A stretch of 64,000 nucleotides of DNA from an uncultured Gemmatimonadales bacterium (GCA_963821525.1 CAWGED010000005.1:352001-416000), one strand, 5' to 3'; positions 4,073-27,714 are shown, counted from the stretch's first letter. Notes: a model not told the origin generated them from the sequence alone. Made by a program: numbers and translations.

Positions 4073-5629
4073 TTAGAACCTCCAGGTGAGCGAGCTGTAG
4101 AGCTGGTCGGTATGGTTGCCCGAGGCGTTTTCCCGACTTCCCGAGAGCAGCAGGTACCACGACCGCCCCAGCGAAATGTCCAGATCCGCACCCAGCCAGG
4201 AAATTGAGCGGTGGGTTGGAAACGCCAGCGGCTCATTTTCTTGTTGCACTCCCCCATTCAGCTCGAGATGCAGCGGTCCCGCAAGCTGGGCCCCAGCACT
4301 CAATGCATAGAGCCAGCCATCCAATCGCGGATTGGTGTAGCGGGTCACTCGGCCGTTTACTCCCAGACCGAAAGACGTGAGCTGATAGAGGCCACCCGTT
4401 GCGGTGATGGACGTCGCCGTGCCGGCCGGGCCGCCGAAGCTCGATCGCCCATCGGCACCGATTCGCCAGCGAGGACCGTTGAACGCGATCCCTCCCCAGG
4501 CTCCTTGTCGGTACTCGTCGTCGAACTGAGTCACCGGGTTCACCACATCCTCGTAGAGCCGCACATTGCGGCGTGTATCGTAGCCGCCGTAGAGAGAGAC
4601 GAGGCGATTCAATCGCAGGTTCGCGGTGAGGTAGGTACTGGTGAGAGATACAGACGCCTTCTCTCCGGCATCGACTTTCCAGGGCTGATAGTAGTCCAGC
4701 TCCTGGGATCCGAAGAGCGAGAGCCGCGGGTTATAAAACGAGGCCTGCACATACGCGAACTCCCGGTTCGCCTTGCCTTTGAAGTAGGAGCCGATCACGC
4801 CCGTCGTGACGGCCCATGCCTCGGTTGCTTCGCGGTGATGGACTCCCACGAAGCCACCAACCTGTTTCATGTCGGTGGAGAAGCCGAGGTCTGGGTCGGG
4901 CTGTGTCCCCGCGAAGACCCCAGCCCCCCAGCGCTGCTTATCCAGCTCGATTAACGCGCCATCGAAGAGACTGAGAGCCGAGAGGCTCTGAGAGAACTGC
5001 CGGCCGATGGTGGCCCGCCACGGCGAGGTGGTCCGCTGCCAGAAAAGGTTCGCCTCGTAGGCACGCGCCCGGTCGTCGACCAGGGTGGAGCCGTCGCTCA
5101 GGGTGCTCGTAGTCCGACGCGCCCGAAAATCCAGATCGATGCCCAGCCCGGAATCCCACAGGTTCTGACCCGCCAACCGTAGATCCGCCGCCGGCTGCCC
5201 GTATCCGACATTTCCTGCGCCATCCTTGACCACGAGATAGCGGGCTCCAACCCTGCCGTGGAGCAACCCCGCCTCCGGGCGGCCGCTCGCTGTGGTGCCC
5301 CGCACCGAGTCGTGAGTGACAGGCGCCGCCGCCACGGCAGGCGTGAACCTCACTTGATCTCCTACCTGGATGGCCGGATTGCCTTCGACCAGCTGGCAGA
5401 CGGACTGGTGGGACGAGAGGTACTGCACCCGAAGCTGTGCTACGGTGGAATCGCCGTGAAAGATGAAAACCTCGCTACCCTCCACCAGCCCATCCTGACG
5501 GCCCTTATTGATGTAGTAGGATCCCCCCACCACGTAGGTAACCCGCGCAGGACCGGTGCTCGCCGAATCCTGGGCGGCGAGAGTAGTGGCCCAGAGGGCC
5601 AAGAGCAGAACTCCGGAGACCCGTTGCAT
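4073..5629 (-). CDS. Putative outer-membrane beta-barrel (porin) with a small N-terminal domain
   Basis: Signal peptide MQRVSGVLLLALWATTLAA; many alternating amphipathic strands; C-terminal LYSSLTWRF; start overlaps the stop of the upstream cytochrome gene. Confidence 0.7.
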   Translation of the reverse strand: MQRVSGVLLLALWATTLAAQDSASTGPARVTYVVGGSYYINKGRQDGLVEGSEVFIFHGDSTVAQLRVQYLSSHQSVCQLVEGNPAIQVGDQVRFTPAVAAAPVTHDSVRGTTASGRPEAGLLHGRVGARYLVVKDGAGNVGYGQPAADLRLAGQNLWDSGLGIDLDFRARRTTSTLSDGSTLVDDRARAYEANLFWQRTTSPWRATIGRQFSQSLSALSLFDGALIELDKQRWGAGVFAGTQPDPDLGFSTDMKQVGGFVGVHHREATEAWAVTTGVIGSYFKGKANREFAYVQASFYNPRLSLFGSQELDYYQPWKVDAGEKASVSLTSTYLTANLRLNRLVSLYGGYDTRRNVRLYEDVVNPVTQFDDEYRQGAWGGIAFNGPRWRIGADGRSSFGGPAGTATSITATGGLYQLTSFGLGVNGRVTRYTNPRLDGWLYALSAGAQLAGPLHLELNGGVQQENEPLAFPTHRSISWLGADLDISLGRSWYLLLSGSRENASGNHTDQLYSSLTWRF

Positions 5630-6903
5630 CAATCGCCACCTCGGCCATTTGGATGGCAGCTGAGGCAGGCCGTGCTGACGTACGAATAGCCGGCCCGCCC
5701 GTGGTGTTTGCTGTCCATCGAGGCCTGATTGTGTTCGTGACACACGAGACAGGTGAACTGGCGGAAGTCGCTCGCCACCTGGTGGCAGGTGGAGCAACTG
5801 CTCCAGGTGCCACGGTGGCTCCCGCTGTAGATCGGGAAGAACGGTCCATCGTGTGCGAACACGGCGCCGGGCCACCGGGTCGTGTTGTGGCAGGAGGCGC
5901 AGTCGGTGGGGAAGCCGGCGCCCTGGTGAGCCGGATTGGTGGTCGCATTGTAGTCCGCGAGGTGGCAGCTCACGCACTGGTTGCTCTTGCCGATGTAGAC
6001 CCCATCGTTGTGACACTGCTGGCAGGTCGCTGCCTTATGCGCCCCCGTGAGCGGGAATTGAGTCCGCGAGTGATTAAACGGCGCGGTCCACGACGCGGTC
6101 GTGTGGCAGCTCACGCAGTCCGTGGGGAACGCGGCCTGGGCATGATTGGGTTGCGAGGTCTGGTTGTAGTCGTTCTGGTGACACGCGACGCATTGCGTCG
6201 ATGCGCCGGTGAAATTGTTTCCGACGTGACACTGGTCGCAGGGCACCGCACGGTGCGCGCCGGTAAGCGGGAAACCACTGCCGTCGTGATTGAACCGGGC
6301 CGGGTTCCACGCCACCGTGCCGTGGCACTGGTTGCAGGTCGTTGGGAATCCGCCGGCGAGGTGATTCGGATTGGACGCCGATTGGTAGGCGCTTTGATGG
6401 CAGCTCACGCAGTCGGTCGGGACCGCGAGGAACACCATCTGTCCCTGGGCCTGGGCCACGTGGCAAGACCGGCAATCGGTCACCAGATGGGCGCCATCCA
6501 GCGGGAACCGGGTGAGTTGGTGACCTCGGGTCATGGCCGCGCGATCGACGAAGCTTCTGGTCGTGTGGCAGCTGGAGCAGACGGTACCGAGCTCGCCGCG
6601 GTGGAGATCCTGGTGGCAGGACACGCAGGCCGGGTCCGCGTCACTGAAGGCCAGCGAAGCGTGGCAGGCCCGGCAGGTGGTCGAGGCGTGGGATCCGGTC
6701 AGGGCGAAGCCCTTCTTGGCATGGTCGAACGCACGGCTGATCCGCGCCGGTGTCCAGCCCTCCGGGGCATGGCAGGTGCTGCATTCTTCCTTAAGCGCGC
6801 CATGTGGGGAACGCGTCGCCTCCTGAGCCCACCCCTGACTGGCCAGGAGGCAGCCAAGCAACGCGAGTCCGACGGCTGGGCCGACACCCCGATCCCGAGT
6901 CAT
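5629..6903 (-). CDS. Multiheme cytochrome c, 16 CxxCH
   Basis: Signal peptide; 16 CxxCH by manual count; repeated FPLxGxH spacer. Confidence 0.9.
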   Translation of the reverse strand: MTRDRGVGPAVGLALLGCLLASQGWAQEATRSPHGALKEECSTCHAPEGWTPARISRAFDHAKKGFALTGSHASTTCRACHASLAFSDADPACVSCHQDLHRGELGTVCSSCHTTRSFVDRAAMTRGHQLTRFPLDGAHLVTDCRSCHVAQAQGQMVFLAVPTDCVSCHQSAYQSASNPNHLAGGFPTTCNQCHGTVAWNPARFNHDGSGFPLTGAHRAVPCDQCHVGNNFTGASTQCVACHQNDYNQTSQPNHAQAAFPTDCVSCHTTASWTAPFNHSRTQFPLTGAHKAATCQQCHNDGVYIGKSNQCVSCHLADYNATTNPAHQGAGFPTDCASCHNTTRWPGAVFAHDGPFFPIYSGSHRGTWSSCSTCHQVASDFRQFTCLVCHEHNQASMDSKHHGRAGYSYVSTACLSCHPNGRGGD

Positions 6904-8904
6904 GTGCCTCTCGGTTCGCCGTGGCAGCTTTCACACTTGGTCGAAACGGGCCGGTAGATCGTCGCTCCCGAGCGGTCCCTTGTGTGGCAGCCGCTGCATG
7001 GGACCGCCTCGTGCGCACCCTTCAGGGAGAAGTGTGTGTCACGGTTGTGGTCGAATCGGGAAGCCGGCGTGAATCCGTCGAGACCGTGACAGGCGTCGCA
7101 CTTGCCGCGATCCACGCGGGTGGCGAACTGATCGCCGTGCGGGCCTTGGTGACACTCTGCACACCCCGTCTTGGCCGCGAGCTTGAGCGGTGCGAACGCG
7201 GTGCCCGAGGCGGCCAGGCTGGAACCCGCCCGCCCCCTGTGCTGGAGGTCTCCATGACACGAGGCACAGGGGACTGCCCGGTGGGCACCTTGGAGCGGTA
7301 GCGCGAAGCGGTTGTGGGTATCGATGGTGATGGTCGAGGGGCGAAAGCTCTCCTGATCGTGACACGCGAGGCACCCTTCCGGCTGGGGTTGCTCACCACC
7401 CTGCGCAAATCGTCCTTGATGCGGATCCAGGTGACAGTCGGTGCAATTCGTTTCTGGGGGCCGGAACAGGAACCCGCCTTTGCCCAGTGCAACCGGGGCA
7501 CTCAGCACCCTGAGTCCGGGGCGCTTCGAACCATGGCAAGCCGAGCACGACACGGTGCCGTGTTTCCCCGCGAGAGTCACCCGCAGGTTCGCATGGTCTC
7601 GGAGGTCATACCGGCTGGGCTTCCAGCCGATCGCGATGTGGCAGGCACTGCACTCGCCCTTGTCGGGGCGGGTCGCCAGCTGGCCGCCGTGCTCGTCGGC
7701 GTGGCAGTCGAGGCACTTGGTGGCTGAGGGTCGGAGGATTACTCGGGCGCTGCCATAACGCGCGACCGGCGCCGTGAGGTCCTTGCGATGACACTGAGCG
7801 CAGGGTACGGCCTGGTGCTCTCCCTCGAGCGGGAACTTCGTCTTCGCGTGCTGCGCCACGCTCAACTGACCCGGACTGAAACCGGTAACGTCATGGCACG
7901 AGGCACAGTCCACCGCGATTCCCCCCAGTGTCGCGGTGCCACCGTGCGGATCGCTATGACACGCGGCGCAGGTGGCGAACGGCGGCCGCTTGCCTTGTTC
8001 GGTTCGGAAATCGTGGCACTTCGCGCAGGGGATGGACGCGTGCCGGCCGCGCAGGGGATACCGGGTGCGGTCGTGATCGAACGCCTGTTTCTCGATGGTT
8101 CCGAAACTCCGCGTGGAATGGCAGCCGGAGCAGGTGGCGCCCAGACGCCCGGCATGGGGATCCGCGTGGCACGCAGAGCATTGCCCGTGGGGAACCGGGC
8201 GGTATCTCGGTACGCGGTGACCCAGAGCGTCGTTCTTGAGGCCGAGTCTGGGGTCGAGGTGACATTGGCGACACGTCACCTCGGCATGCTTTCCGGTGAG
8301 TGGGTAGGCCGTCGAGTCGTGAGAGAATCCGGGGGTGACCTTCCATTTCCCTGCATCATGGCACCTGGCGCAGTCCTGTCCCAAGGCGCCTCGATGAACG
8401 TCCTCGTGGCACGACACGCACTCCCGAGACAATCCGGTCCAACTCTGGACGGTGCGCTGCACCGCGAGCTTCGCGGCCGGTGAGATCCGGAATTTCGTGG
8501 TGTGACAGTCGGCGCACTTCGCTCGTCGGTGACTTTGCTCCAGGGTCCAGCCCGCTCGCGCGTGATCAAAGCCTTCTGGAGTTCCATCCGGCCACTTGAT
8601 GAGGGCGAAGTCACGGCCTGCGTGGTCCGGGTGGCAGGACGCGCAGGTCTGCTCCCCGGAGAGCACCGTGGGGGCCTTCGCGCCGTGCGGCGAGCCAGCC
8701 GATGTCCTTGTGACAGTCCACGCAGAGCGTATCCATGGCTTCCTTCCGTCCTCCATGGCACCGGGTACAGTTCAGCGTCCCTTCGAGCTCCCGGTGTGCG
8801 CTGGCCAACGGGCCAGGTGAGATCTGGGCCTGCGATCGTGGAGCGCCTGCGATGAGAAGGCCGACCGCCAGAGCCGTGACTCGCACGGCTCGCGCGGTCT
8901 TCAC
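6900..8904 (-). CDS. Multiheme cytochrome c, ~23 CxxCH (indel near 8690)
   Basis: GTG start overlaps upstream TGA; signal peptide then QISPGPLASAH; 2 CxxCH before and 21 after the frame change. Confidence 0.85.
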
Positions 8905-9889
8905 CAGAACCACGTCGCCCCGAGCGCGACCACGACGCCCACATGGATCAGCACGGCCACGAGCGCTGTGATGGCAAACGGTCGGTGGGCCACATGCCAG
9001 TAGCGAAAGAGCCGTTGCGTCACCCCGAGCATCCGGGCTTGCTGAGTGAGAGCCATTTCCCGGTTGGCCAGGCGAAGCACGGTTCGAGAGTGCTCGTCGG
9101 TCCAGGCGCCGGGCAGTGCCGTTCCTTGCCTCCACTCTGTCGTCGCAGGACTCGGGCGGCTCGGCGACGGTCAAGGTCATCCTTCAGCATCAGGCCGACG
9201 CTGCGAACCAGGCCGATCCCTTCAGTCGGGCTGGGGTCAGAGCGGAGGGTGCCCTCGATTTCCTCCCTCGTCAGTCCGGTTTCGGTCGCGATCTGCAGGA
9301 TGAGTTCGTTGCGTTGCGCCGCCGTCTCCTCGGCGCTCAGCTCGAGCCCGCTCTGTCCCCGCGGAATCCGCACGTACAGGTATCGGCCCGCGATGCCGCT
9401 GGCGCAGACCACGATCATCGAGAGGTATCCCAGCCCGATCAGTCCATCGAACCGCCAGCTGGCATGGATGGCGGCGATCAGAGGGAGCGCCAGACGCCAC
9501 CAGGACGTGGGCATCCATCCAGCGCGACATCGATCCGGTCCACGCCAGCCAGCGGTATTTCTTGCGGAAGGGATAGAGCCAGAGAACAGGAAGATGAGCA
9601 ATGCCAGGATGCCGGCGGATTGCCCGATATAGCCCGAGGGCCGCAGCCACGGATGCCATGGCGAACGCACTCGCTCCGCAGGTGCGGCGAGATAGTACGG
9701 AGCCCCGATGAGAGAGATCGCGACCAGGACCGCGAGGACCGCCGCCAGCCCTCGCGGTGTGGCCGGCTTCGTCGCGGCCCGTGGAGGATTCGTCTCACCG
9801 CCGACCGGGGAGGGAGGCGCTACCTTGGTGGTCACGGGACGAGGGCGGGTTGCCAGCTTGAGCGCCCCGGGACGGACTGTTCGTTTCAT
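8901..9889 (-). CDS. Polytopic membrane protein with His in TM segments (ferric-reductase/cytochrome-b-like; several indels)
   Basis: Joined frames give hydrophobic helices containing MDAHV, AAIHA, YWHVAH and LIHV, ending ALGATWFW*. Confidence 0.6.
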
Positions 9890-10070
9890 GAAGGCTCGTT
9901 CAAAATGTTGGTCGGTACGCCGCGTGCATTACTGCAAAGGAGAAACCGTGGGGATGGAGCGAGGGTTGCTGGTGTAACAGATGATGCCACATAGAATTGC
10001 CGCGCAGCTCCAAGGCTGCTAACGGCTCCGCGAGTGCTACGCGTTGATCCACCTGTAACGAGTCGTTGCA

Positions 10071-11409
10071 ATGCTTGCTTATTTGACATTATTGGCGATC
10101 CTCGCTTTCACGATTGTCGCCCAGGTTCGGCGTATGCACCGTCGCGACCGCGAGGCTCGAGCTGCGGCATCCCGCGGCGGCCTGGTCACGGAAGGACCCC
10201 GGGCACAACATCCGCACATCGACGTGGATCACTGCATAGGCTGTGGTGCGTGCGTTGATGCTTGCCCGGAGGGAGACGTACTCGCCGTCATCGGCGGGAA
10301 AGCCGCGATCGCCAAAGGACACAAATGCATCGGTCACGGGCTCTGCGCCGAGGCTTGCCCGGTCGGCGCGATCGAGATCGTCATGGCCGCGGCGAGCATC
10401 AGCGCAGATCTGCCGCAACTCAGCGCCGACTATGAAACCAACGTTCCCGGGTCTCTTCATCGCCGGAGAGCTGGGCGGACTTGCCCTGATCAAGAACGCG
10501 ATCAATCAGGGTCGTGACTGCGTGGACACGATCGCCCGGCGGGTGGCCCAGACCCGCGGACCTCGCTCAGTCGAGGTTCACGACGTCTGCATTGTCGGAG
10601 CCGGTCCGGGAGGGATCAGCGCTTCGCTCCGCGCCATTGAGCGCAAGCTCTCGTATGTCACGCTGGAACAGGACGAATTGGGCGGGACGGTAGCCAAGTA
10701 CCCTCGACAGAAACTGGTCCTGACGAGCCCGGTCGAATTGCCGCTCTATGGGAAGTTCAAGAAACTCGAGATCTCGAAAGAGGACCTGCTGGAGGTGTGG
10801 GCGGAGCTCTCGGACAAGGTGGGGTTGGTCGTCAACACTCGGGAGCGGGTGGACCACCTGATTCGAGAGCCGGACGGCACCTTCCGCATCGAGACCTCGA
10901 ACGGACGCTATCGGGCCCGCCACGTGATCCTGGCCCTGGGTCGCCGGGGCACGCCCCGCAAACTTGGTGTTCCCGGCGAGGAACTCTCCCATGTCATGTA
11001 CAGCCTGATCGATGCGGAGGCGTATACCGACAAGAGGATTCTGGTGGTGGGTGGAGGTGACAGCGCGGTGGAGGCCGCTATGGGTCTGGCTCACCAGCGA
11101 GGAAACCGCGTCGTCGTCTCCTATCGGGCTGCGGAGTTCACGCGGCTCAAGGAGCGGAATGCGCGAGGCCTGCAGGAAGCCGTGAAATCAGGCCGACTCG
11201 AGGTAGTGCTGAATTCCCTGCCGACCGAGATCAGCAGCGAAGCGGTGCTGCTTCGGATCGGCGAGGGTACTCGCCGGATCTCAGCCGATTATGTATGGAT
11301 CTTCATAGGGGGCACGCCCCCCAATCACTTCCTGGAAAAGGCCGGGGTCATCCTTGGGGCACGGGACCTGACCGCCGAGGCGGCGGCAGAGGCATTGCGG
11401 GTCGCCTGA
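10071..11409 (+). CDS. Membrane-anchored 2x[4Fe-4S] ferredoxin fused to a thioredoxin-reductase-like FAD/NAD(P)-binding domain (indel near 10450)
   Basis: N-terminal TM; CIGCGACVDACP and CIGHGLCAEACP; IVGAGPGG; ILALGRRGTPRKLGVPGE; VVGGGDSA. Confidence 0.85.
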
Positions 11410-11465: not shown

Positions 11466-11891
11466 ATGATGAAACCGGGACACAAATTCCTACTGGGCGC
11501 CGCCATCATCGTTGGCGCCGTTGCCTTGCTGATGATCGAAGGGGTCAAGGAGTTTGGTCAGTATTCCCTCACACCGACCGAACTTGCCGCCAAGACGGCC
11601 GCCGATTCCTCGTTCTACAACCTCGGCCTGAAGATGAACGCCAAAGTGGTTCCCGGAACGATCAAGCGGGACCCGGCGTCTCAGACCATCGATTTCGAGG
11701 TGACCGACGGCAGTCACACCTATCCTGTGAGTTATCACGGGCTGGCGCCCGACACCTTCACCGACCAGCAGGATATCGAAGTGGTCGTCGAGGGCCGGCT
11801 GGGGCGGGATGGGGTGTTCCGCGCCACGACACTGCTGGCCAAGTGCGGCTCGCGCTACTCCGGCAAGTACGCGGAGGGAAAGAAGGTGTAG
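11466..11891 (+). CDS. ccmE: Cytochrome c maturation heme chaperone CcmE (CxxxY type)
   Basis: N-terminal TM, V.Y.G..PDTF, VVVEGRL, LLAKCGSRY. Confidence 0.85.
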   Translation: MMKPGHKFLLGAAIIVGAVALLMIEGVKEFGQYSLTPTELAAKTAADSSFYNLGLKMNAKVVPGTIKRDPASQTIDFEVTDGSHTYPVSYHGLAPDTFTDQQDIEVVVEGRLGRDGVFRATTLLAKCGSRYSGKYAEGKKV

Positions 11892-11965: not shown

Positions 11966-12277
11966 GGGGAGTGACTCTCGAGCCTGCCGAGCCCACGCGG
12001 CCACTGAGCCGCAGCCGCATGAGGAAAACTTCATCCCTCATTCCGGGTCCTTTTAGCGCCCGTCCCCCAACGTAGCCCAACCCCGTTGAGTTCGCGGGAT
12101 CACCCTCGGCCACGGCTGTCGTGACGTGTCAAACAGCTCCGCCGGTCATTGTCGGACCCCTTCGCAGAGGCACTCATGGTGCGAGAGTGCCAGGCTTGCT
12201 GGCTTCACGCCAGTCCCCCCACGGGCGGAGCCCACGGGCGCGCCGGGTCGCCAATCCTCTCTTACCCGCGACTACCT

Positions 12278-14623
12278 ATGAGACGGGTCGACCGTAGGAC
12301 GTTCCTCAAGAGGCTTGGGGTCGTTTCAGCGGCCACCGCCGCCGCTGGCGCCGTTCCCGGCATGGTGTTCCCCACGGGTGGTATCCTCCCGCACGGCGCC
12401 CAAACCGGCCCAGTCTGGAAGAAGACACCGTGCCGCCTTTGCGGCGTCGGCTGCGGATTACTGATAGCGATCGAGAACGGACGCGCAGTGGCCGTAAAGG
12501 GCGACCCTGACTCCCCGGTGAGCAAAGGGCTGGCCTGTGTGAAGGGCTATAACTCCGTGCAGGCGCTCTACGGGCGGGACCGGCTCGCGCACGCCATGGT
12601 CCGGCGCGACGGTGGGCTGGTGGAGGCTTCCCTCAACGAGACGTTCGACCTGGTGGCGCGCAGGCTCCGCGAGACCGTCGAGAAGCACGGCAAGAACAGC
12701 GTCGCCATCTACGGCTCGGCCCAGTGGACCATCCCGGATGCCTACATCGCGTCGAAGCTGTTCAAGGGAGCGCTGGGAACCAACAACGTGGAGACCAGCT
12801 CGCGCCTTTACGCCGGAAGCGCGATGGCCGGCCTCCAGAGCAGCTTCGGCCTCGACGGTGGGATCGGCTGCTACGAGGACATCGACCACGCCGACGTCTT
12901 CGTGTTGTGGGACGTCAATCTGGCGGAAACCGATCCGGTTCTCTTCTCTCGCATGCTGGACCGCCGGCGGGTGAACCCCGCCGTCCGGATCATCGAGGTC
13001 GCAACCCGCACCACGCGCACCAGTTACGCCGTCGACCAGTCTCTGCTGCACGCGCCGCATGCCGCGGCGGCGATCGCCAACGGCATCTGCAACGAAATCG
13101 TGGCCCGCAAATGGGTGCAGCAGGAGTTCGTCGCCCAGCACGTCGCCTTCAAACGGGGGAGGGCGAACATAGGTGACGGTCTGGCCGACGACCCTCTGGT
13201 TACGGAAGACGCCACCGACAGCACTTGGAGAGAGTACGTAGCGTTTCTCGCGGACTACGAGCCGGAGCGAGCCCAGGAATTGTCCGGCGTTTCGGCGGCG
13301 AGCATTCGCTGGCTGGCGTCCCTCTACGGCGACCCGCTGCGCAAGGTGATGTCGGTCTGGGGCCGAGAGGTGAACCAGGACGTGCGCGGCACCTGGATGA
13401 ACAACCTGCTCTACAACATCCATCTGCTGGTGGGGAAGGTCGCCTCGCCAGGGAATAGCCCCTTCGCCACCACGGGCCAGCCGAGCGGCGGGAGCGCGGT
13501 GAACGACGCGGGCAGCTTGACGCACACTCTGCCGCGCGGGGTGGTACAGAACGAAGAGGATCGCCGCCGGGCGTCGGAGATCTGGGGCGTCCCGGTGGAC
13601 AGGATCGATGCCCAGCCGACCGCCCCTTTGCTGGCAATGTTCCGCCAGCTGGAACGGGGCGACATCCGCTTTCTCTGGATCCTGGCCACCGATCCGATGG
13701 TCAGCCTGCCGAATTTGGACCGTTATCGTCAGGCGGCAACCAAGGGCGACCGCTTCATCGTGGTCTCGGAGGCGTATCCGACTCCTACGACGGATGTGGC
13801 GGACGTCGTCCTCCCCGCGGCGATGTGGCTTGAGCGCGAGGGGATCTACGCGAACGTCGAGCGCCGGGCGCAGCACTTCGAGCGGATGGTAGCGCCTCCC
13901 GGTGAGGCCACCGGCGACGCTTGGCAGATGATCGAGGTCGCCCGCCGTCTCGGCTTCGAGAAGCTGTTCCCCTACCAGCCGGGTGGCCACGTCGAGCAGA
14001 TCTGGGAGGAGTACCGCCGCTTTCATCAGGAACCGCAAGACGCGCTGCCCGCCACCTCCGAGCTCCGCGCGAACTCCGGCGTGATGTGGCCTTACGTGGG
14101 CGGCCGCGAGACGCGGTGGCGCTACAACTCCGCTTACGATCCGGCGGCCGATGGCACCCACGGCGCCTTCGATTTCTACGGCCATGCGGACCATCGTGCC
14201 TGGATCTGGCTCAGACCCTACGAGCCTCCGGCGGAGTTTCCAGGCGGCGAGTATCCATTCTGGCTCACGACGGGCGCCGTACTCGAGCATTGGGGTGCGG
14301 GCTCGATGACCCAACGCATTCCGACGTTGCATCACGCGCTCCCTCATGCCTACGTCGAGGTCAATCGCGAGGACGCAAGCGATCTGGGCATTCGGAACCG
14401 CGAGACCATCCGCCTGGTGAGCCGCCGCGGCTCGATCGAGCTCGAGGCCCGCATCGACTATCGTTCCCAACCGCCGCGTGGGCAGGTCTTTGTTCCGTCG
14501 TTCGACGAGGCGCGGCCGGTGAATCGGCTCACGCTCGATGCGTGCTGTCCGCTATCGGGCCAGCCCGATTCCAGCAAGTGTGCGGTTCGGGTGGAGCGAC
14601 TGACGCCGCGGAGCGGCACATGA
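12278..14623 (+). CDS. Tat-exported NapA-like (DMSO-reductase superfamily) subunit with a divergent active site
   Basis: DRRTFLK Tat motif; CRLCGVGC...CVKG FeS motif; GSAQWT, YNIHLLVGK, TGQPS, MWLEREG...NVERR, KCAV are colinear with NapA; the Mo-ligand position reads RLY. Confidence 0.85.
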   Translation: MRRVDRRTFLKRLGVVSAATAAAGAVPGMVFPTGGILPHGAQTGPVWKKTPCRLCGVGCGLLIAIENGRAVAVKGDPDSPVSKGLACVKGYNSVQALYGRDRLAHAMVRRDGGLVEASLNETFDLVARRLRETVEKHGKNSVAIYGSAQWTIPDAYIASKLFKGALGTNNVETSSRLYAGSAMAGLQSSFGLDGGIGCYEDIDHADVFVLWDVNLAETDPVLFSRMLDRRRVNPAVRIIEVATRTTRTSYAVDQSLLHAPHAAAAIANGICNEIVARKWVQQEFVAQHVAFKRGRANIGDGLADDPLVTEDATDSTWREYVAFLADYEPERAQELSGVSAASIRWLASLYGDPLRKVMSVWGREVNQDVRGTWMNNLLYNIHLLVGKVASPGNSPFATTGQPSGGSAVNDAGSLTHTLPRGVVQNEEDRRRASEIWGVPVDRIDAQPTAPLLAMFRQLERGDIRFLWILATDPMVSLPNLDRYRQAATKGDRFIVVSEAYPTPTTDVADVVLPAAMWLEREGIYANVERRAQHFERMVAPPGEATGDAWQMIEVARRLGFEKLFPYQPGGHVEQIWEEYRRFHQEPQDALPATSELRANSGVMWPYVGGRETRWRYNSAYDPAADGTHGAFDFYGHADHRAWIWLRPYEPPAEFPGGEYPFWLTTGAVLEHWGAGSMTQRIPTLHHALPHAYVEVNREDASDLGIRNRETIRLVSRRGSIELEARIDYRSQPPRGQVFVPSFDEARPVNRLTLDACCPLSGQPDSSKCAVRVERLTPRSGT

Positions 14624-15438
14624 GCTCCCCCGACCGGCACCCGGCCGCACTCGTCTTGGGCCTGTTCATGGTCGGCTCGGCCGTCACCGCCGCGGCCGCG
14701 TTGAGCGTCGCGGTGAAACGTGCTGCCGCCGGTCGGGAGCCGGTGCCCGCCCCCATCGCCGTCAAGATGGTGGCGCCACCCGATGAGCCGATCCGCGCCG
14801 AGGCGCAGGTGTTCCGCACAACTCCCGCCATCCTGGCGATCGAGCCCTCTGCCCGCCGGGAACGGTCGGCTCACCCGCGCACACTGAAGACGGTTCGCTT
14901 CCTGCGCGCCTTTCCGGGAGCCCCACCGCGGATTCCCCACGCCCTCACGCCTGAGGAATTCCGCACCGACGCCTGCAAGACCTGCCACGAGCGAGGTGGC
15001 TTCTCGCAGCGGTTTGACGCCTACGTGCCAGTGACGCCGCATCCCGAGCGGGGCATCTGTCTCCAGTGCCACGCGGGCGAGGACTCGCTCATGGGAGTGG
15101 CGATTCCCATCGCAAACCCGAACGCGAGGTGTCCGCAGTGCCACGGTCCGAGCGGTGGCCCCCCACGCGCAGATGCTACACTGACCTGGCCCACGACGGT
15201 TTGGCCGCAGGTGCCGCGGACAACGCCCGACCAAGATCCCCCCCCGATTCCGCACAGTCTGCAGTTCAGGGAGAATTGCCTCACCTGCCATTCCGGGCCT
15301 TCCGCCGTCGCTGAAATCCGGACCAAACACCCGGAGCGGGTCAACTGCCGTCAGTGCCATGTCGCGCTCGATCCGGAGGCGGAGCCGTTCGCCCGCCTGC
15401 CGCAGGACGTCGCTGCCGGGGACGGGAGTACGCCATGA
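14620..15438 (+). CDS. NapB-like cytochrome c with two PPxIPH modules, 5 CxxCH
   Basis: N-terminal hydrophobic segment; GAPPRIPH and DPPPIPH; CKTCH, CLQCH, CPQCH, CLTCH, CRQCH. Confidence 0.8.
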   Translation: MSSPDRHPAALVLGLFMVGSAVTAAAALSVAVKRAAAGREPVPAPIAVKMVAPPDEPIRAEAQVFRTTPAILAIEPSARRERSAHPRTLKTVRFLRAFPGAPPRIPHALTPEEFRTDACKTCHERGGFSQRFDAYVPVTPHPERGICLQCHAGEDSLMGVAIPIANPNARCPQCHGPSGGPPRADATLTWPTTVWPQVPRTTPDQDPPPIPHSLQFRENCLTCHSGPSAVAEIRTKHPERVNCRQCHVALDPEAEPFARLPQDVAAGDGSTP

Positions 15439-16157
15439 GCCGGACCCGGGTTGCGACCGCGGTCGGGTGCCTCGCGGCAGCATGGCTGACGTCTGCCTGT
15501 CGCGAACGAGCCCATGCGGTGTGGGACGTCCCACCGCCCGGGGCGGTCAGCCAGGTCGACTCTGCGACGGCCGCCCTGAACGCGACTCTGGAGCCCGGCG
15601 TACTGGCAACGGTGCAGGCGGTGCCGGTCCAACGCTGGAAGGGACCGGGCAACGAGCCATTCGAAGTCGCGCTCCGCAGCGCGACTCCGGAGGCGGGACA
15701 CTCCCGAATGTTCGGCTCCATCACGCTGCCGATCGCGCTGCGTAGCCGGGCGGCGGCCATGAGTCAGTACCCCTGCACGTCATGCCACCAGGGCCGGAAG
15801 GTGGTCATGGCCAACAAGCGCATCAGCGACGCTCACAACAACATCAAGCCGGTGCACCCGGACCAGACCGGCGCCGTCTGCTCCACCTGCCACTCGGCCG
15901 ACGACGTCGAGCTGCTCACGCTCAAGAGCGGCGAGCACGCCACCCTGGACGAGAGCTATCGGCTGTGTGCGCAGTGCCACTTCGAGCAGGCGAAGGCGTG
16001 GGCCGGCGGCGGGCATGGGAAACGACTCGACGGCTGGGAGGGACGGCGGGTGGTCATGGCCTGCGCCGATTGCCACGACCCACACAATCCCGCTGTCCAG
16101 ACCCGCATCCCCTTCCGCGCGCCGGAACTCGAGCGAACCAGGAGCGCCGGCCCATGA
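15435..16157 (+). CDS. Tetraheme cytochrome c, probable lipoprotein
   Basis: LTSAC lipobox-like motif; CTSCH, CSTCH, CAQCH, CADCH. Confidence 0.8.
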   Translation: MSRTRVATAVGCLAAAWLTSACRERAHAVWDVPPPGAVSQVDSATAALNATLEPGVLATVQAVPVQRWKGPGNEPFEVALRSATPEAGHSRMFGSITLPIALRSRAAAMSQYPCTSCHQGRKVVMANKRISDAHNNIKPVHPDQTGAVCSTCHSADDVELLTLKSGEHATLDESYRLCAQCHFEQAKAWAGGGHGKRLDGWEGRRVVMACADCHDPHNPAVQTRIPFRAPELERTRSAGP

Positions 16158-17128
16158 GCGATGACGGCACCCCCCAGATGCCGGAGCGCGCCGACGGCAC
16201 CGTGCTGCAGAAGCGGGTCGATCGGCGGGAAGCGCTGGGCCTCCTGGTTGGCGGCCTGGCCGCCGGCGCTGCCGCGGTGGGCGCGTGTACCCCGCTCACC
16301 GCGGCGACGCCCGAGGAGCGCGAGCTCAAGCTCTTAGCCTGGCGGGAGTACATCAAGGGCAATTACCACTTCATGACGGAGGAGGAGCGGGCGGAGACGA
16401 TCGCTCGTCTCGAGCGCCTCGCGAAGCTGCAGCGCGGCGTGGACGTGACTATCCAGTCCACCGGGGCACAGCCCGGCGTGATGTTCGGCTACGCCTTCAA
16501 TATTTCGAAGTGCAAGGGGTTCCGGAACTGCGTCGAGGCCTGCATCAACGAGAACAATCTCGATCGGCGGGCGGCGACGCAGTACATCCGCATCTTCGAG
16601 ATGGAGGACGGCGAAGTCGACCTCGACCTCGCCGATGCGACCTTCCAGCACGAGGTGCCGGCCGAGGGCCACTTCTATCTCGGGACCCAGTGCTTCCAGT
16701 GCGCCGATCCCCCGTGTGTGAAGGTCTGCCCGGTGGGCGCCACCTGGCAGGAACCGGATGGCATCACGGTCATCGACTACGACTGGTGCATTGGGTGCCG
16801 CTATTGCATGGCCGCCTGTCCCTACTGGGCGCGGCGCTTCAACTGGAGCCAGCCGGAGGTCCCCCAAGAGGAAGTGAACCCCAACCAGCACTACCTGGGC
16901 AACCGCGCGCGCAAGAAGGGCGTGGTCGAGAAGTGCACCTTCTGCATCCACCGGACCCGGCAGGGCCGGTTGCCGGCCTGCGCCGAGGCCTGTCCCACAG
17001 GGGCGCGGGTCTTCGGCAACCTGCTGGATCCCGACTCCGAGATCCGCTGGGTGCTGGCGAACAAGCGAATTTTCCGGCTGAAGGAAGAACTGAAGACGGA
17101 GCCGCGTTTCTGGTACTTCACCGACTGA
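16154..17128 (+). CDS. NrfC/PsrB/DsrO-like iron-sulfur subunit, copy 1
   Basis: DRREALG twin-arginine-like leader; CKGFRNCVEAC, CFQCADPPCVKVCP, CIGCRYCMAACPY, KCTFC...PACAEACP. Confidence 0.9.
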   Translation: MSDDGTPQMPERADGTVLQKRVDRREALGLLVGGLAAGAAAVGACTPLTAATPEERELKLLAWREYIKGNYHFMTEEERAETIARLERLAKLQRGVDVTIQSTGAQPGVMFGYAFNISKCKGFRNCVEACINENNLDRRAATQYIRIFEMEDGEVDLDLADATFQHEVPAEGHFYLGTQCFQCADPPCVKVCPVGATWQEPDGITVIDYDWCIGCRYCMAACPYWARRFNWSQPEVPQEEVNPNQHYLGNRARKKGVVEKCTFCIHRTRQGRLPACAEACPTGARVFGNLLDPDSEIRWVLANKRIFRLKEELKTEPRFWYFTD

Positions 17129-17135
17129 GGCGACC

Positions 17136-18430
17136 GTGCACCTGAAGCCATTCCTGCTCACAGCCCTAGACTCGGCGACCACCGGGGGCCGGCGCTACCA
17201 CCTCTGGATGGGGAGCCTGACGGCGATCATCCTCGTCGGGGCGTACGCGTATTCCCTCCAGCTGCGCTACGGACTCGGCGTCACGGGAATGAGCGATCAG
17301 GTGAGCTGGGGTCTTTACATCTCGAACTTCACCTTTCTCGTCGGCATGGCCGCGGCCGCCATGATGCTGGTGCTGCCGGCGTACATCCTGGACGACGTGG
17401 ACTTCGGCCGCGCGGTGCTGATGGCGGAAGGCGGTCGCCGTGGCGGCGCTGGTCATGTGCCCTCGGGTTCGTGGTGGTGGACATCGGCAACCCATTCGCC
17501 GGGTGGCACCTCGTGCCCGGCATCGGCTACCTGAACTGGCCGCGGTCGCTCCTGGCCTGGGACGTGATCGTGCTGAACGGGTACCTGGCGCTGAATCTGG
17601 CCATCCCGTTCTACATCCTCTACAGCCACTACTCCGGCCGTTCGCCGGCCAAGAACAAGTACCTCCCCTGGATGTACATCTCCGCCATGTGGGCGGTGAG
17701 CATTCACCTGGTCACGGCGTTCCTGCTGGCGGGCCTGCCCGCCCGGCCGTTCTGGAACACGGCGCTGCTGGGGCCCCGGTTCCTGGCCTCGGCCTTCACC
17801 GCGGGGCCGGCGTTCGTGCTCGCTGCTGCTCTGGTTCATCCGGCGGAAGACGAAGTACGCCATTGCCGATGGCGCCTTCTCGAAGCTCGCGCTGATCGCT
17901 GTCGCCGCGGCGCAGATCAACCTCGTGATGCTCATCTCCGAGCTGTTCTACGAGTTCTACTCGCCCACCCATCACGGCATCAACGCGCGGTATCTCTTCT
18001 TCGGCCTCGGCGGGCACCACGCCCTGGTGCCCTGGATCTGGACGGGGATCGGGCTGAATGTCCTGCGCGACCGTCGCCCTCATGATCCACCCGCTGCGGC
18101 GCAAATCCGCGCTGGCTGATGCCGGCCTGCGCCACGCTGTTCGTGGGCATCTGGATCGAGAAGGGGATCGGCCTGGTGATCCCCGGCTTCATTCCCTCGC
18201 CGCTGGGCGAGATCGTCGAGTACACGCCCACCTGGGTCGAGCTGTGCGTGACCGCCGGCATCTGGGCCCTGGGCCTGTTCGTGCTGACCGTCCTGGTGCG
18301 GGTGGCGCTGCCGATCGAGCTGGGGGATGTGCGCAGTCCGTACCTGGCGCAGGCGCCCGCCGCGCGGGCAGTCCGCCCGCGCGCGACCCGGGCGCGGCAC
18401 GAGGACGTCCGGCCAGTCCGGACCCGATGA
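17136..18430 (+). CDS. NrfD/PsrC/DsrP-like quinone-interacting membrane subunit, copy 1 (indels)
   Basis: GVTGMSDQVSWGLYISNFTFLVG, DIGNP, SLLAWDVIVL, HLVTAFL, EKGIGLVIPGF, EYTPTWVE. Confidence 0.85.
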
Positions 18431-18481
18431 TCCGACGCTGGGCACTCCGCCGGCCGACTTTACTTCCACGAGGTGATGGAC

Positions 18482-19361
18482 ATGACCAGACACTAGGCCA
18501 AACGACACCCGATACTCCTTCGCCGCGCTCGCCGCGGGGCTGGTCGGGGCGGCCGGGCTGGCCGGCGGGCTGTTCCTCGCGGGGGTCGCGCCGCCGCTGG
18601 CCGCGGTGGCGGGCCTGGGATTGGGGCTGCTCCTCGCCGCCTCGATCAAGTACACCGACCAGTGGGAGAAGGCGGTCCTCCTGCGGCTCGGCCGCTACCG
18701 GGGCCTGCGAGGTCCCGGGTACTTCGCCATCGTGCCGATCCTCGATCGGGTGGCCTACACCATCGACCAGCGGATCCGGACCACGGCGTTCGGCGCCGAA
18801 TCGTGCCTGACCCGCGACACGGTGCCGGTCAACGTCGACGCCATCGCCTTCTGGATCGTGCGCGACGCCGAGCGCGCCGCGCTGGAGGTGCAGGACTACG
18901 ACGAGGCGGTCATCCTCTCGGCGCAGACCGCGCTGCGGGACGCCATCGGGAAGCACGATCTCGCGGAGCTGATCCAGTCCCGGGTGGAACTGGGCCACGG
19001 ACTCAAGGTGGCGCTGGAGCAGAAGATGGCGAACTGGGGGATCCAGGTGCAGTCGGTGGAGATCCGGGACGTCATCATCCCGGCCGCGCTCGAGGACGCC
19101 ATGTCGCGCCAGGCCCAGGCCGAGCGGGAGCGCCAGGCCCGCATCATCCTGGGCACTGCGGAAACCGAGATCGCCCACAAGTTCGTCGAGGCCGCGGCCG
19201 CCTACCGCGACCACCCCGAAGCCATGAACCTGCGGGCCATGAACATGCTCTACGAGAGCATCGTCAAGCGCGGCTCGCTCATGGTGGTGCCCTCAGGCCT
19301 GGCCGACTCCCTGAACGTCCCATCCCTGATGGGCGTGTCAGGGGCACCGAAGAGCCTGTAA
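18482..19361 (+). CDS. SPFH/stomatin (slipin) family protein, copy 1 (5' indels, shorter C-terminus)
   Basis: QWEKAVLLRLG, LTRDTVPVNVDA, AQTALRDAIG, SVEIRDV, QAQAERERQARII. Confidence 0.85.
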
Positions 19362-19440
19362 CCCGGAAGGGAGGCGCAGGACCCCAGATGCACAACTGCC
19401 CCTTCCGCCCTGAACTGGAGCGTACCAGGAGCCACGGCCC

Positions 19441-20420
19441 ATGAGTGACAACCGCATCCCCGAGATGCCCGAGAGCGCCGACGACGGCACCGTGCTGCAG
19501 AAGCGGGTCGATCGCCGGGATGCGCTGGGCCTCCTGCTCGGCGGCCTGGCCGCCGGCGCTGCCGCGGTGGCCGCGTGTACCCCGCTCACCGCGGCGACGC
19601 CCGAGGAGCGCGAGCTCAAACTGCTCGAATGGGAACAGTTCACCCAGAAGCACTATCGCCGGATGACCGAGGAGGAGCGCGCAGAGACCATCCAGCGGCT
19701 CGAGCGCCTCGCCAAGCTGCTCCATAACCAGGACGTCACCATCGCCACTACCAATGCATTGCCGGGAGTCCTCTTCGGCTACGCCTTCAACATCTCGAAG
19801 TGCAAGGGCTACCGGCGCTGCGTCGAGGCCTGCATCAACGAGAACAACCTGGACCGCAAAGCGGACACGCAGTACATCCGGATCTTCGAGAACGGAACAC
19901 GGCGTGGTCAATCTCAACGATGCCGATGCGACCTATCCAACACGAGGTGCCGGCCGAGGGCCACTTCTACCTCGGGACCCAGTGCTTCCAGTGCGCCAAC
20001 CCGCCCTGCGTCCCGGTCTGCCCGGTGGGCGCCACCTGGCAGGAGCCCGATGGCATCGTGGTGATCGACTACAACTGGTGCGTCGGATGCCGGGCCTGCA
20101 TGGCCGCTTGCCCCTACTGGGCGCGGCGCTTCAACTGGGACGTGCCCGAGGTGCCCAACGAGGAAGTGAACCCCAATCAACACTACCTCGGGAATCGTGC
20201 CCGCAAACAGGGATGCGTCGAGAAGTGCACCTTCTGCATCCACCGGACCCGGCAGGGCCGGTTGCCGGCCTGCGTCGAGGCCTGTCCCACCGGGGCGCGG
20301 GTCTTCGGCAACCTGTTGGATCCCGATTCCGAGATTCGTTGGGTGCTCGCAAACAAGCAGGTCTTCCGTCTGAAGGAAGAGCTCGCGACGGAACCGCGCT
20401 TCTGGTACTTCATCGACTGA
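19441..20420 (+). CDS. NrfC/PsrB/DsrO-like iron-sulfur subunit, copy 2 (indels near 19890-19940)
   Basis: Same Cys motifs as copy 1 (CKGYRRCVEAC ... CVGCRACMAACPY). Confidence 0.85.
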
Positions 20421-20427
20421 GGCGACC

Positions 20428-21721
20428 GTGCATCTACGAGCCTTCCTGTTGAGCGCGCTGCGCTCCGTGACCTCCGGCGATCGCCGCTACCATCTCTGGA
20501 TGGGGAGCCTGACGGCGATCATGCTGGTCGGGGGCTATGCCTACCTCGTCCAGGCCACCCACGGGCTCGTCGTCACGGGGATGAACGACCATGTGAGTTG
20601 GGGACTGTACATCTCCAACATGGCGTTCCTCGTGGGGGTGGCGGCCGCGGCGGTGATCCTGGTGATGCCGGCGTATGTCCTGCAGGACGTCGACTTCAGC
20701 CAGGCCGTCCTCATCGCCGAGGGGGTCGCGGTGTCCGCCCTGGTCATGTGCCTCAGCTTCGTCACGGCCAACAGTCCGGGCTTTCCCTGGAAGTGGTGGC
20801 GCCTCACGCCGGTCATCGGACTGCTAAACTGGCCCAGCTCGATGCTGGCATGGGACGTCATTGCCCTGAACGGCTACCTGGTGCTCAACCTCACCATCCC
20901 GTTCTACATCCTCTACAGCCACTTCACCGGACGCGAGCCGGAGAAGAAGAAGTACGTGCCGTTCATTTACCTCTCGGTCGTCTGGGCGGTGAGCATTCAC
21001 CTGATTACCGCGTTTCTTTCGCGGCCCCACCGTCCCGCCCCCTGTGGAACTCGCCGCTGCTTGGGCCCCGCTTCCTGGCCTCGGCCTTCACGGCCGGCCC
21101 CGCGTTCATGATCCTGTTGCTCGGGTTTATCCGGTCGACCAGCCAAGTACCCCATTTCGGACATGGCCATCTCGAAACTGGCCACCGCCACCACCGTGGC
21201 GGCGCAGATCAATCTCGTGATGCTCTTTTCCGAGCTGGTTTACGAGTTCTACTTTCCCACGCATCACAGCATCAGCGCGCGATATCTCTTCTTCGGCCTC
21301 GGCGAGCATCATGCGCTGGTGCCGTGGATCAGGACCGCGGATCACCCTCAACGTCGTGGCGACGTGGTCGCTCATGATCCACCCGCTGCGGCGTAACCCG
21401 CGCTGGCTGATGCCGGCCTGCGCCACGCTGTTCGTCGGCATCTGGGTCGAGAAGGGGATCGGCCTGGTGATCCCGGGCTTCATTCCCTCGCCGCTGGGCG
21501 AGATCGTCGAGTACACCCCCACCTGGGTCGAGCTGTGCGTGACCGCCGGCATCTGGGCCTTGGGCCTGTTCGTCCTGACCGTCCTGGTGCGGGTGGCGCT
21601 TCCGATCGAGCTGGGGCATGTGCGCAGTCCCTATCTGGAGCAGGGGCCCGCCCCGCGGGCAGTCCGCCCGCGCGCGACCCGGGTGCGGCACGAGGACGTC
21701 CGGCCGGTCCGGACCCGATGA
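20428..21721 (+). CDS. NrfD/PsrC/DsrP-like membrane subunit, copy 2 (indels)
   Basis: VTGMNDHVSWGLYISNMAFLVG; C-terminal part almost identical to copy 1. Confidence 0.85.
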
Positions 21722-21763: not shown

Positions 21764-22753
21764 GTGATGGCCATGACCAGACATAGAGCAAACGACACCC
21801 GGTACTCCTTCGCCGCGCTCGCCGCGGGGCTGGTGGGGGCGGCCGGGCTGGCCGGCGGACTGTTCCTCGCGGGGATCGCGCCGCCGCTGGCCGCGGTGGC
21901 GGGCCTGGGACTGGGGGTGCTCCTCGCCGCCGCGATCAAGTACACCGACCAGTGGGAGAAGGCGGTCCTCCTGCGGCTGGGCCGCTATCGGGGCCTGCGA
22001 GGTCCCGGGTACTTCGCCGTCGTCCCGATCCTCGATCGGGTGGCGTACACCATCGACCAGCGGATCCGGACCACGGCGTTCGGCGCCGAATCCTGCCTGA
22101 CCCGCGACACGGTGCCGGTGAACGTCGACGCCATCGCGTTCTGGATCGTGCGCGACGCCGAGCGCGCCGCGCTGGAGGTGCAGGACTACGACGAGGCGGT
22201 CGTCCTCTCGGCGCAGACCGCGCTGCGGGACGCCATCGGGAAGCACGATCTCGCGGAGCTGATCCAGTCCCGGGTGGAGCTGGGCCACGGGCTCAAGGTG
22301 GCGCTGGAACAGAAGATGGCGAATTGGGGGATCCAGGTGCAGTCGGTCGAGATCCGCGACGTCATCATCCCGGCCGCGCTCGAGGATGCCATGTCGCGCC
22401 AGGCCCAGGCCGAACGGGAACGCCAGGCCCGCATCATCCTGGGCACGGCGGAAACCGAGATCGCCCACAAGTTCGTCGAGGCCGCGGACGCCTACCGCGA
22501 CCACCCCGCAGCCATGAACCTGCGCGCGATGAACATGCTCTACGAGAGCATCGTCAAGCGCGGCTCGCTCATGGTGGTGCCGTCAGGCCTGGCCGACTCG
22601 CTGAACGTCCCATCCCTGATGGGCGTGATGGGTGCCACCGGACTGCTGCCGCGGGATGGCGAGGCCAAGGCACCGGTGATGGGAGGTGGGGCGGCCACGG
22701 TCGCGCCTGGGGCGCCTGCCCCCAGCGCGGCGGAAACCGGGAAGGCGCACTAG
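21764..22753 (+). CDS. SPFH/stomatin (slipin) family protein, copy 2
   Basis: Intact ORF with the same SPFH motifs as copy 1. Confidence 0.9.
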   Translation: MMAMTRHRANDTRYSFAALAAGLVGAAGLAGGLFLAGIAPPLAAVAGLGLGVLLAAAIKYTDQWEKAVLLRLGRYRGLRGPGYFAVVPILDRVAYTIDQRIRTTAFGAESCLTRDTVPVNVDAIAFWIVRDAERAALEVQDYDEAVVLSAQTALRDAIGKHDLAELIQSRVELGHGLKVALEQKMANWGIQVQSVEIRDVIIPAALEDAMSRQAQAERERQARIILGTAETEIAHKFVEAADAYRDHPAAMNLRAMNMLYESIVKRGSLMVVPSGLADSLNVPSLMGVMGATGLLPRDGEAKAPVMGGGAATVAPGAPAPSAAETGKAH

Positions 22754-27633: not shown

Positions 27634-27714
27634 GTCGGTATAGAAAATACCCGCCCCGGCAAAAGGAACATCGCCGGGGCGGGTGAGACTCCGCGTCACC
27701 AAGGCGCGCCCCAA

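Follow-up and report, generated by a model that had tools for sequence, protein, structure and literature searches.

In a 64,000-nt stretch of DNA from an uncultured, soil-type Gemmatimonadales bacterium (GCA_963821525.1 CAWGED010000005.1:352001-416000; positions 352001-416000 of contig C5 in a 4.33-Mb, 81%-complete genome), here called the window, we analysed a cluster of five genes encoding an outer-membrane beta-barrel, a 16-haem and a 23-haem cytochrome c, a protein of the inner membrane and a membrane-anchored iron-sulphur (FeS) flavoprotein. The module is real and conserved, and it is a variant of a predicted type of porin-cytochrome cluster, the new part being the FeS flavoprotein link. 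We read the five genes as one trans-envelope conduit fed by NAD(P)H, in which a split input resembling NOX and MsrQ is placed on a wire resembling the porin-cytochrome c cluster PCC3, and we assign this reading a probability of about 0.55. It draws on the observed gene content, motifs, co-occurrence and fusions, together with predicted folds for the barrel and for the five-helix membrane protein.

In the proposed path, the anchored flavoprotein would accept a hydride that cytoplasmic NAD(P)H gives up and, from its flavin adenine dinucleotide (FAD), hand electrons on one at a time over a pair of FeS clusters to the membrane protein, which has two predicted b haems and on whose cytoplasmic insert the flavoprotein would dock. 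The 23-haem cytochrome would then carry the electrons across the periplasm and, on the last leg, the 16-haem cytochrome would lead them inside the 22-strand barrel to an acceptor outside the cell. No quinone would be needed. A chain from NAD(P)H through FAD, FeS clusters and haem b to c haems had been put forward from a reading of the sequence alone (hereafter the sequence-only reading) and is now backed by motifs, linkage and fusions; the bypass of the quinone pool that went with it is something we infer.

Gene organization and state of the assembly

The five genes were found where the sequence-only reading had placed them (Table 1). Translational coupling, which it had also claimed, is borne out by stop/start overlaps at all three junctions of the minus-strand run: GTGA at 8904-8901 between the membrane protein and the 23-haem cytochrome, ATGA at 6903-6900 between the two cytochromes, and TGATG at 5631-5627 between the 16-haem cytochrome and the barrel. 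The divergent spacer between the membrane protein and flavoprotein genes, given earlier as about 180 bp, measures 181 bp. Regulatory motifs were sought in this spacer by aligning four congeneric genomes, which at 94% column identity are too alike to reveal them. The 39 CxxCH motifs on a single strand inside 3.1 kb, together with the recurrence of the module in other phyla, indicate that the gene set is not a product of chance.

Table 1 Features of the five-gene cluster, in positions of the window
Feature	Position	Strand	Basis or remark
Outer-membrane beta-barrel, 518 aa	4073..5629	-	AlphaFold2 model, fold matches
16-haem cytochrome c, 424 aa	5629..6903	-	16 CxxCH, signal-peptidase-I type leader
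23-haem cytochrome c (670 aa open reading frame in G003)	6900..8904	-	21+2 CxxCH, split by one frameshift near 8650
Inner-membrane protein (predicted di-haem cytochrome b), 328 aa when intact	8901..9889	-	two WX3HX13H, SGxxG; four assembly indels
Divergent intergenic region, 181 bp	9890..10070		no regulator assigned
Membrane-anchored FeS flavoprotein, 445 aa when intact	10071..11409	+	Pfam Fer4, Pyr_redox_3; frameshift near 10449

A point absent from the sequence-only reading is that three of the five genes are frameshifted in the window assembly. Compared with a 94%-identical genome (G003), there are six 1-bp indels, near 8650, 9087, 9136, 9493, 9584 and 10449, and for each of the six there is at least one of four public runs whose short-read contigs (88% likeness) lack it. 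The counterparts of the frameshifted genes, including those of the 23-haem cytochrome and the flavoprotein, are intact in G003 and in a second genome, G001. Because the indels are absent from these short-read contigs and the genes of near relatives are intact, we rejected the interpretation as pseudogenes; the indels are most likely assembly errors, as judged from the short-read contigs of close relatives. The intact orthologues of G001 and G003 were used throughout in place of the frameshifted genes.

Co-occurrence and fusion of the flavoprotein and the membrane protein

A co-occurrence search, which the sequence-only reading had proposed, found the flavoprotein tightly linked to the membrane protein and often fused to it. 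Of 301 Gemmatimonadota genomes, 66 match the membrane protein (65 full-length and one weak partial match), 69 the flavoprotein and 67 the barrel. All 65 genomes with a full-length membrane protein also carry the flavoprotein and 64 of them carry the barrel, all three markers being present in 64. Read from the other side, 65 of the 69 flavoprotein-bearing genomes have the membrane protein; of the four that carry the flavoprotein only, three also have the barrel, with the gene at a contig end in two, and the fourth carries another paralogue. Gemmatimonadales are the source of the named homologues closest to the window membrane protein.

At the level of individual loci (69 loci out of 68 Gemmatimonadota genomes), the flavoprotein gene lies inside the locus in 66, and the three misses stop at contig ends. 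The 66 loci fall into four arrangements, with the flavoprotein gene divergent (40), directly after the membrane protein gene (14), after the barrel gene (9) or directly before the membrane protein gene (3). In Bacteroidota, where 32 of 301 genomes match the membrane protein at an expectation value (E) below 1e-60, we inspected the best 80 loci with a 10-kb flank; the flavoprotein gene sits directly 3′ of the membrane protein gene in all 80, a cytochrome with at least five haems is present in 72 and the barrel in 43, a count often limited by the flank. A third clade, known from metagenomes, shows the order cytochrome, cytochrome, barrel, membrane protein and flavoprotein, and the flavoprotein is found in 65 of its 80 loci, or in 32 of 33 when each flank must measure at least 2 kb. 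On plasmid pEMTOL02 of the cultured Emticicia oligotrophica DSM 17448 (L161:10899-23483), ccsA, the membrane protein, the flavoprotein, a 23-haem and a 40-haem cytochrome, the barrel and a GW-domain protein stand in one row that begins with ccsA. By estimate, some 1,800 stretches stored in the genome collection match the membrane-protein patterns.

Fusions were surveyed among the 120 listed flavoprotein homologues of at least 803 residues (P0280-P0399). Thirty-seven of them join the flavoprotein to the membrane protein, 32 with both WX3HX13H motifs; one named example is from Planctomycetes Pla163, and a fusion in the opposite order also exists. In 41 others, the flavoprotein is joined through a retained hydrophobic leader to a cytochrome with 16-37 haems, and in five there are small N-terminal cytochromes. 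Further listed long homologues combine the flavoprotein with FHA and small cytochrome domains or carry long TPR tails, and some of these are from Myxococcota.

A Methylophaga plasmid encodes a distant homologue of the membrane protein (hhalign probability 99.6), flanked by a 7-haem cytochrome and by an FNR-type FAD/NAD/2Fe-2S protein unrelated to the flavoprotein (L162:5974-9328). The membrane protein family has therefore acquired two different NAD(P)H modules. The Methylophaga module adjoins ccm and heavy-metal genes, and small cytochromes similar to its own are found on more than 25 sphingomonad plasmids.

The predicted input: membrane protein and flavoprotein

The membrane protein has five transmembrane helices (TM1-TM5) according to its model (predicted local distance difference test (pLDDT) 89) and hydropathy, a cytoplasmic N-terminus by charge bias and a cytoplasmic helical insert of about 125 residues. 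The two WX3HX13H motifs place H128 and H142 on TM3 and H301 and H315 on TM5, and SGxxG lies on TM4. The description of this protein as His-rich was overstated, the intact orthologue having 7 His in 328 residues; four of these, H128, H142, H301 and H315, are nevertheless invariant across 116 aligned homologues, and both motifs are kept in 155 of 156 full-length homologues. In the predicted topology, H128 and H301 face the cytoplasm and H142 and H315 the periplasm, and these two invariant bis-His pairs are suitably placed for two b haems, so that each side of the membrane would have one bound haem. Foldseek returned no match at E up to 0.001 for this protein, and PDB sequence searches gave zero matches for it and for the 23-haem cytochrome; these blanks are no proof of a new fold.

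The flavoprotein consists of an N-terminal transmembrane helix, a ferredoxin domain with two clusters, and an FAD and NAD(P) domain of the YpdA/TrxR type. The best solved relative of the FAD domain is YpdA/Bdr (7A7B, E 7.5e-51), and ferredoxin-NADP reductases of the TrxR fold are among the solved relatives as well. In the ferredoxin domain, the second cluster motif reads CxxHxxCxxxCP, with His instead of the second Cys in 188 of 189 homologues, and the first motif lacks the second Cys in 87 of the 189, a pattern suggestive of clusters that are 3Fe-4S or His-ligated and have raised potentials. The CxxC that follows the FAD motif in thioredoxin reductases is absent in 189/189 homologues, which argues against disulfide reduction; the YpdA cysteine after GxGP is likewise absent in all 189, and the score against TIGR04018 (YpdA/Bdr) is 151 bits vs a cut-off of 340. 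With the redox cysteines missing throughout, a function as thioredoxin or bacillithiol reductase was rejected. A conserved Tyr-Arg after the second Rossmann strand aligns with YpdA, which uses NADPH, and this pair would point to a preference for NADPH in the flavoprotein too. For the segment preceding the FAD motif, two YpdA structures give weak alignments at their C-terminus (0-2 bits), which suggest that the flavoprotein may be circularly permuted. A related flavin domain occurs in a 785-residue protein on a Pseudoalteromonas plasmid (L170:6932-9286), in a glycosyltransferase cluster with no cytochrome annotated nearby.

The predicted wire: cytochromes and barrel

The 16-haem cytochrome has 24.9 residues per haem and 34 His, and the 23-haem cytochrome 27.9 residues per haem and 50 His, enough in both for bis-His ligation of every haem. 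These low ratios and the supply of His would fit wires rather than enzymes. The two proteins differ in how they vary among relatives: 127 of 136 open reading frames with the N-terminal motif of the 23-haem type carry 20 or 23 haems, the remaining nine including contig-cut or frameshifted pieces, whereas the barrel-adjacent cytochrome has anything between 12 and 87 haems, the number often rising by three. One cytochrome thus appears to be limited by the width of the periplasm and the other to be free to extend outward. On these haem counts, the fixed-length cytochrome would span the periplasm, and the variable one would likely extend outward, crossing the barrel or forming a surface wire. The leader of the window's 16-haem protein contains LLGC; a lipoprotein reading was rejected since the cysteine is not conserved. 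An MtrA-type decahaem model gives 34-42 bits for the window cytochromes vs a cut-off of 192.

The sequence-only reading had called the 4073..5629 product a barrel, and it does model as a 22-strand outer-membrane barrel. It has a signal peptide, a small N-terminal beta domain (about residues 26-95), a flexible linker, 22 predicted strands and a C-terminal Phe. The AlphaFold2 model, built with 47 orthologues, has a pLDDT of 86, with the strands spanning residues 123 to 517 and the linker disordered. No Pfam or NCBIfam family matches the protein. Fold searches returned outer-membrane barrels exclusively, none of them standing out; MtrB ranked 40 of 50 (Z 12.5, root-mean-square deviation (rmsd) 5.4, 335 aligned residues). 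Look-alikes in the Atlas belong to unnamed clusters from Gemmatimonadota, Acidobacteriota and Bacteroidota. Three clusters (G252:C11, G092:C4 and G096:C22) each contain two barrel copies and additional copies of the barrel N-terminal domain.

Direction of flow and alternative readings

The direction of electron flow, which the sequence-only reading had held could not be told, can be narrowed by considering potentials. Taking E as −0.32 V and the membrane potential as near −0.15 V, a donor below about −0.47 V would be required to drive electrons inward onto NAD(P)+ against the membrane potential, so outward flow is the likelier direction. Electron flow is probably outward and not energy-conserving: because it would spend membrane potential, the likely use is to dump surplus reductant or to reduce outside acceptors rather than to respire, and Fe(III), humics and partner cells are likely candidate acceptors. 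An inward wire, in which electrons from Fe(II), minerals or partner cells reach NAD(P)+ via the flavoprotein acting as a ferredoxin-NADP reductase, would suit the TrxR-fold enzymes of that activity among the solved relatives and the finding of PCC3 in iron oxidisers (PMC5566968). The required donor lies far below Fe(II) or humic quinols, and there is no proton-driven coupling unit among the five genes; we regard inward flow as very doubtful.

Several observations count against the NAD(P)H-fed conduit as a whole. The genomes in which the linkage was counted are related and hence are non-independent samples. Among the listed long flavoprotein homologues, 37 of 120 are fused to neither partner, some of them having TPR tails, and 8 of the 80 Bacteroidota loci lack a cytochrome with at least five haems in the DNA examined, four of these eight despite 8-10 kb downstream. 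The fold matches of the membrane protein to cytochromes b are weak and in the range of generic helical bundles (Z 7.7-9.7 for 4D2, CybB, FdnI and STEAP4; CybB with Z 8.7 and rmsd 3.7 over 134 aligned residues, FdnI with Z 7.9, STEAP4 with Z 7.7 and rmsd 6.8 over 153), and the Pfam Ferric_reduct (PF01794) match of the G003 protein is weak as well (E 0.016-0.18). At the outer membrane, the N-terminal domain of the barrel aligns in several fold-search rows with the plug region of TonB-dependent receptors and, if the model holds, could block the pore; the barrel has 22 strands, against 26 in MtrB; and neither cytochrome has a conserved lipobox in its cleavable-type leader, so that their surface location is a prediction.

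The nature of the membrane protein bears on a second reading, in which it exchanges electrons with the quinone pool, as modelled for PCC3, while the flavoprotein acts either as a side branch or as a co-regulated input from NAD(P)H to quinone; on this view, we would be dealing with an ordinary porin-cytochrome system that has a quinol oxidase of its own. By fold, the natural cytochromes b that come closest are CybB and FdnI, both quinone-active. He et al. 2017 model this type of membrane protein as quinone-active (PMC5566968), the Sideroxydans PCC3 clusters are described there and in bioRxiv 2025.02.27.639646 as four genes without a flavoprotein, and MsrQ binds ubiquinone as a side acceptor (PMC12525009). 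A quinol oxidase, however, can do without a cytoplasmic partner, whereas these two genes are linked in 65/65 genomes and fused in 37/120 listed long homologues; moreover, the His pairs on parallel helices of the model would put one haem at the cytoplasmic side, beside the large cytoplasmic insert. We consider the quinone-linked reading unlikely.

The outer end of the proposed wire bears on a third reading, in which the chain stops at a periplasmic haem pool that acts as a capacitor or supplies reductant to enzymes of the periplasm or for repair, in the way that MsrQ serves MsrP, and the barrel exports or anchors a cytochrome or admits a soluble acceptor. The possible plug domain would suit it, as would the absence of a conserved lipobox from both cytochromes, the usher and substrate porins that form the best Foldseek rows of the barrel, the respiratory-type periplasmic genes that adjoin the cluster, and the existence of related modules without a porin, namely that of the Methylophaga plasmid and those in Table S6 of He et al. 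(PMC5566968). It sits poorly with a barrel that is kept in 64 of 65 genomes and translationally coupled to a cytochrome, and with the range of 12-87 haems in the barrel-adjacent cytochrome beside the 20 or 23 of the other, as if only one were limited by the width of the periplasm. We hold a chain that ends in the periplasm to be distinctly improbable, and retain the NAD(P)H-fed conduit as the preferred reading.

Comparison with known systems

The sequence-only reading had compared the cluster with MtrCAB and the Geobacter Pcc systems. Their general design recurs here, with a porin gene adjoining multihaem cytochromes as in MtrCAB of Shewanella and OmbB-OmaB-OmcB of Geobacter and their wire-in-barrel arrangement serving as the model. 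The differences are considerable, however: there is no MtrB family match, the barrel has 22 strands, the cytochromes have 16 and 23 haems instead of being decahaems, lipoprotein leaders are lacking, and the five genes include no CymA, ImcH or CbcL. Among described systems, PCC3 (He et al. 2017) comes nearest, and its membrane protein is of the same type. PCC3 is a predicted porin-cytochrome c cluster (PMC5566968, and the Gallionellaceae survey PMC9900912), and its function is called still untested in bioRxiv 2025.02.27.639646 and PMC9900912.

We describe the window module as PCC3-like, on a comparison with the Sideroxydans ES-1 and Leptothrix SP-6 clusters by their described anatomy. PCC3 and the window module both have a porin adjoining multihaem genes, that of Leptothrix cholodnii being also given as 22-stranded, and two very large, low-complexity multihaem cytochromes with about 25-28 residues per haem. 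The periplasmic cytochrome has 21-27 haems in PCC3, 23 in the window and 20 or 23 in its relatives; the extracellular one varies in size in PCC3, and its possible window counterpart has 16 haems (12-87 in relatives) and no conserved lipobox. The PCC3 membrane protein is defined (PMC5566968) by about 300 residues, five helices, SGXXG on TM4 and WX3HX13H on TM3 and TM5, and the window protein carries this full signature. PCC3 is a four-gene cluster of Alpha-, Beta- and Gammaproteobacteria with a membrane protein modelled as quinone-active, whereas the window adds a fifth gene in a Gemmatimonadales host, and modules of the window type, in Gemmatimonadota, Bacteroidota and other phyla, have the flavoprotein nearly always adjacent or fused. 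Plasmid searches found no full proteobacterial cluster.

Table S6 of He et al. 2017 (PMC5566968) further lists mostly porin-less clusters of a multihaem cytochrome with 7-18 haems, an HX13H membrane protein and an 'other redox protein'. They share with the window a membrane protein with two HX13H motifs beside a cytochrome c and a redox protein, and their sizes are matched by the Methylophaga module (612, 252 and 254 residues), whose membrane protein is homologous to that of the window. The redox protein is unnamed in the table and is of the FNR type in Methylophaga; the accessible text proposes no NAD(P)H mechanism.

For the input side, the analogy is with MsrQ-Fre, NOX and STEAP, in which a cytosolic NAD(P)H flavoprotein delivers electrons to a transmembrane bis-His haem protein and on to a periplasmic acceptor, a scheme that the window proteins may follow. 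The electrons that reduce MsrQ come from NADH by way of Fre, a separate reductase of the cytosol, and ubiquinone does not act as donor (PMC12525009). As in ferric reductase domains, two bis-His pairs are spaced 13 residues apart on TM3 and TM5. The window membrane protein differs in having five helices instead of six, a large cytoplasmic insert and a Pfam Ferric_reduct score below the cut-off; its reductase combines a TrxR/YpdA fold with a ferredoxin domain, and the acceptor is a 39-haem wire plus porin. The closest solved relatives of the FAD domain, YpdA/Bdr and the TrxR-fold ferredoxin-NADP reductases, share the aligned Tyr-Arg; unlike YpdA, the flavoprotein lacks the GGGPC cysteine, carries both a membrane anchor and a ferredoxin domain, and looks circularly permuted.

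Implications

The characterised porin-cytochrome conduits of Gram-negative bacteria are known to draw electrons from quinol. An NAD(P)H-fed conduit, if real, would give diderm bacteria a third route of extracellular electron transfer, one that works as a redox valve and not as a means of respiration. It would enable heterotrophs, fermenting or aerobic, to unload reductant onto minerals, humics, electrodes or partner cells with no respiratory link involved. With the full-length membrane protein in 65/301 Gemmatimonadota genomes, the module is common. The broader proposition, that a mobile and widespread five-gene module forms a quinone-independent wire from NAD(P)H to the surface in Gemmatimonadota, Bacteroidota and other heterotrophs, with a split NOX-like input and an outer cytochrome of 12-87 haems, falls in our view slightly short of an even chance. 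No paper on the flavoprotein link was found in the literature searched, whose coverage left most subscription journals outside, and the link is not described in the accessible parts of PMC7399161 or PMC11475568. Since the markers are annotated as 'hypothetical' or 'thioredoxin reductase' and the barrel has no Pfam or NCBIfam family, surveys based on families likely miss the module. With all five genes on pEMTOL02, the cultured E. oligotrophica DSM 17448 makes the PCC3 idea testable.

Neighbouring genes

In one sediment run, RNA contigs fall in every one of the 30 bins, but contigs cannot show transcription, and we did not use them for a reading of expression. Directly 3′ of the flavoprotein gene, the window encodes the haem chaperone CcmE (11468-11891, plus strand). 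A plus-strand stretch at 12149-21400 follows with a NapA-like molybdopterin protein, cytochromes with five and four haems and then a block of NrfC-like FeS, NrfD and SPFH genes that is present twice. A second, unrelated row resembling a porin-cytochrome cluster lies on the minus strand at 22583-29384, with about 39 CxxCH in frameshifted reading frames of 16, 4, 4, 9 and 6 haems, a barrel-like sequence between the cytochrome frames and a weak NrfH-like N-terminal match. It is adjoined by genes for subunits A and B of a V/A-type ATP synthase (29589-32970, minus strand).

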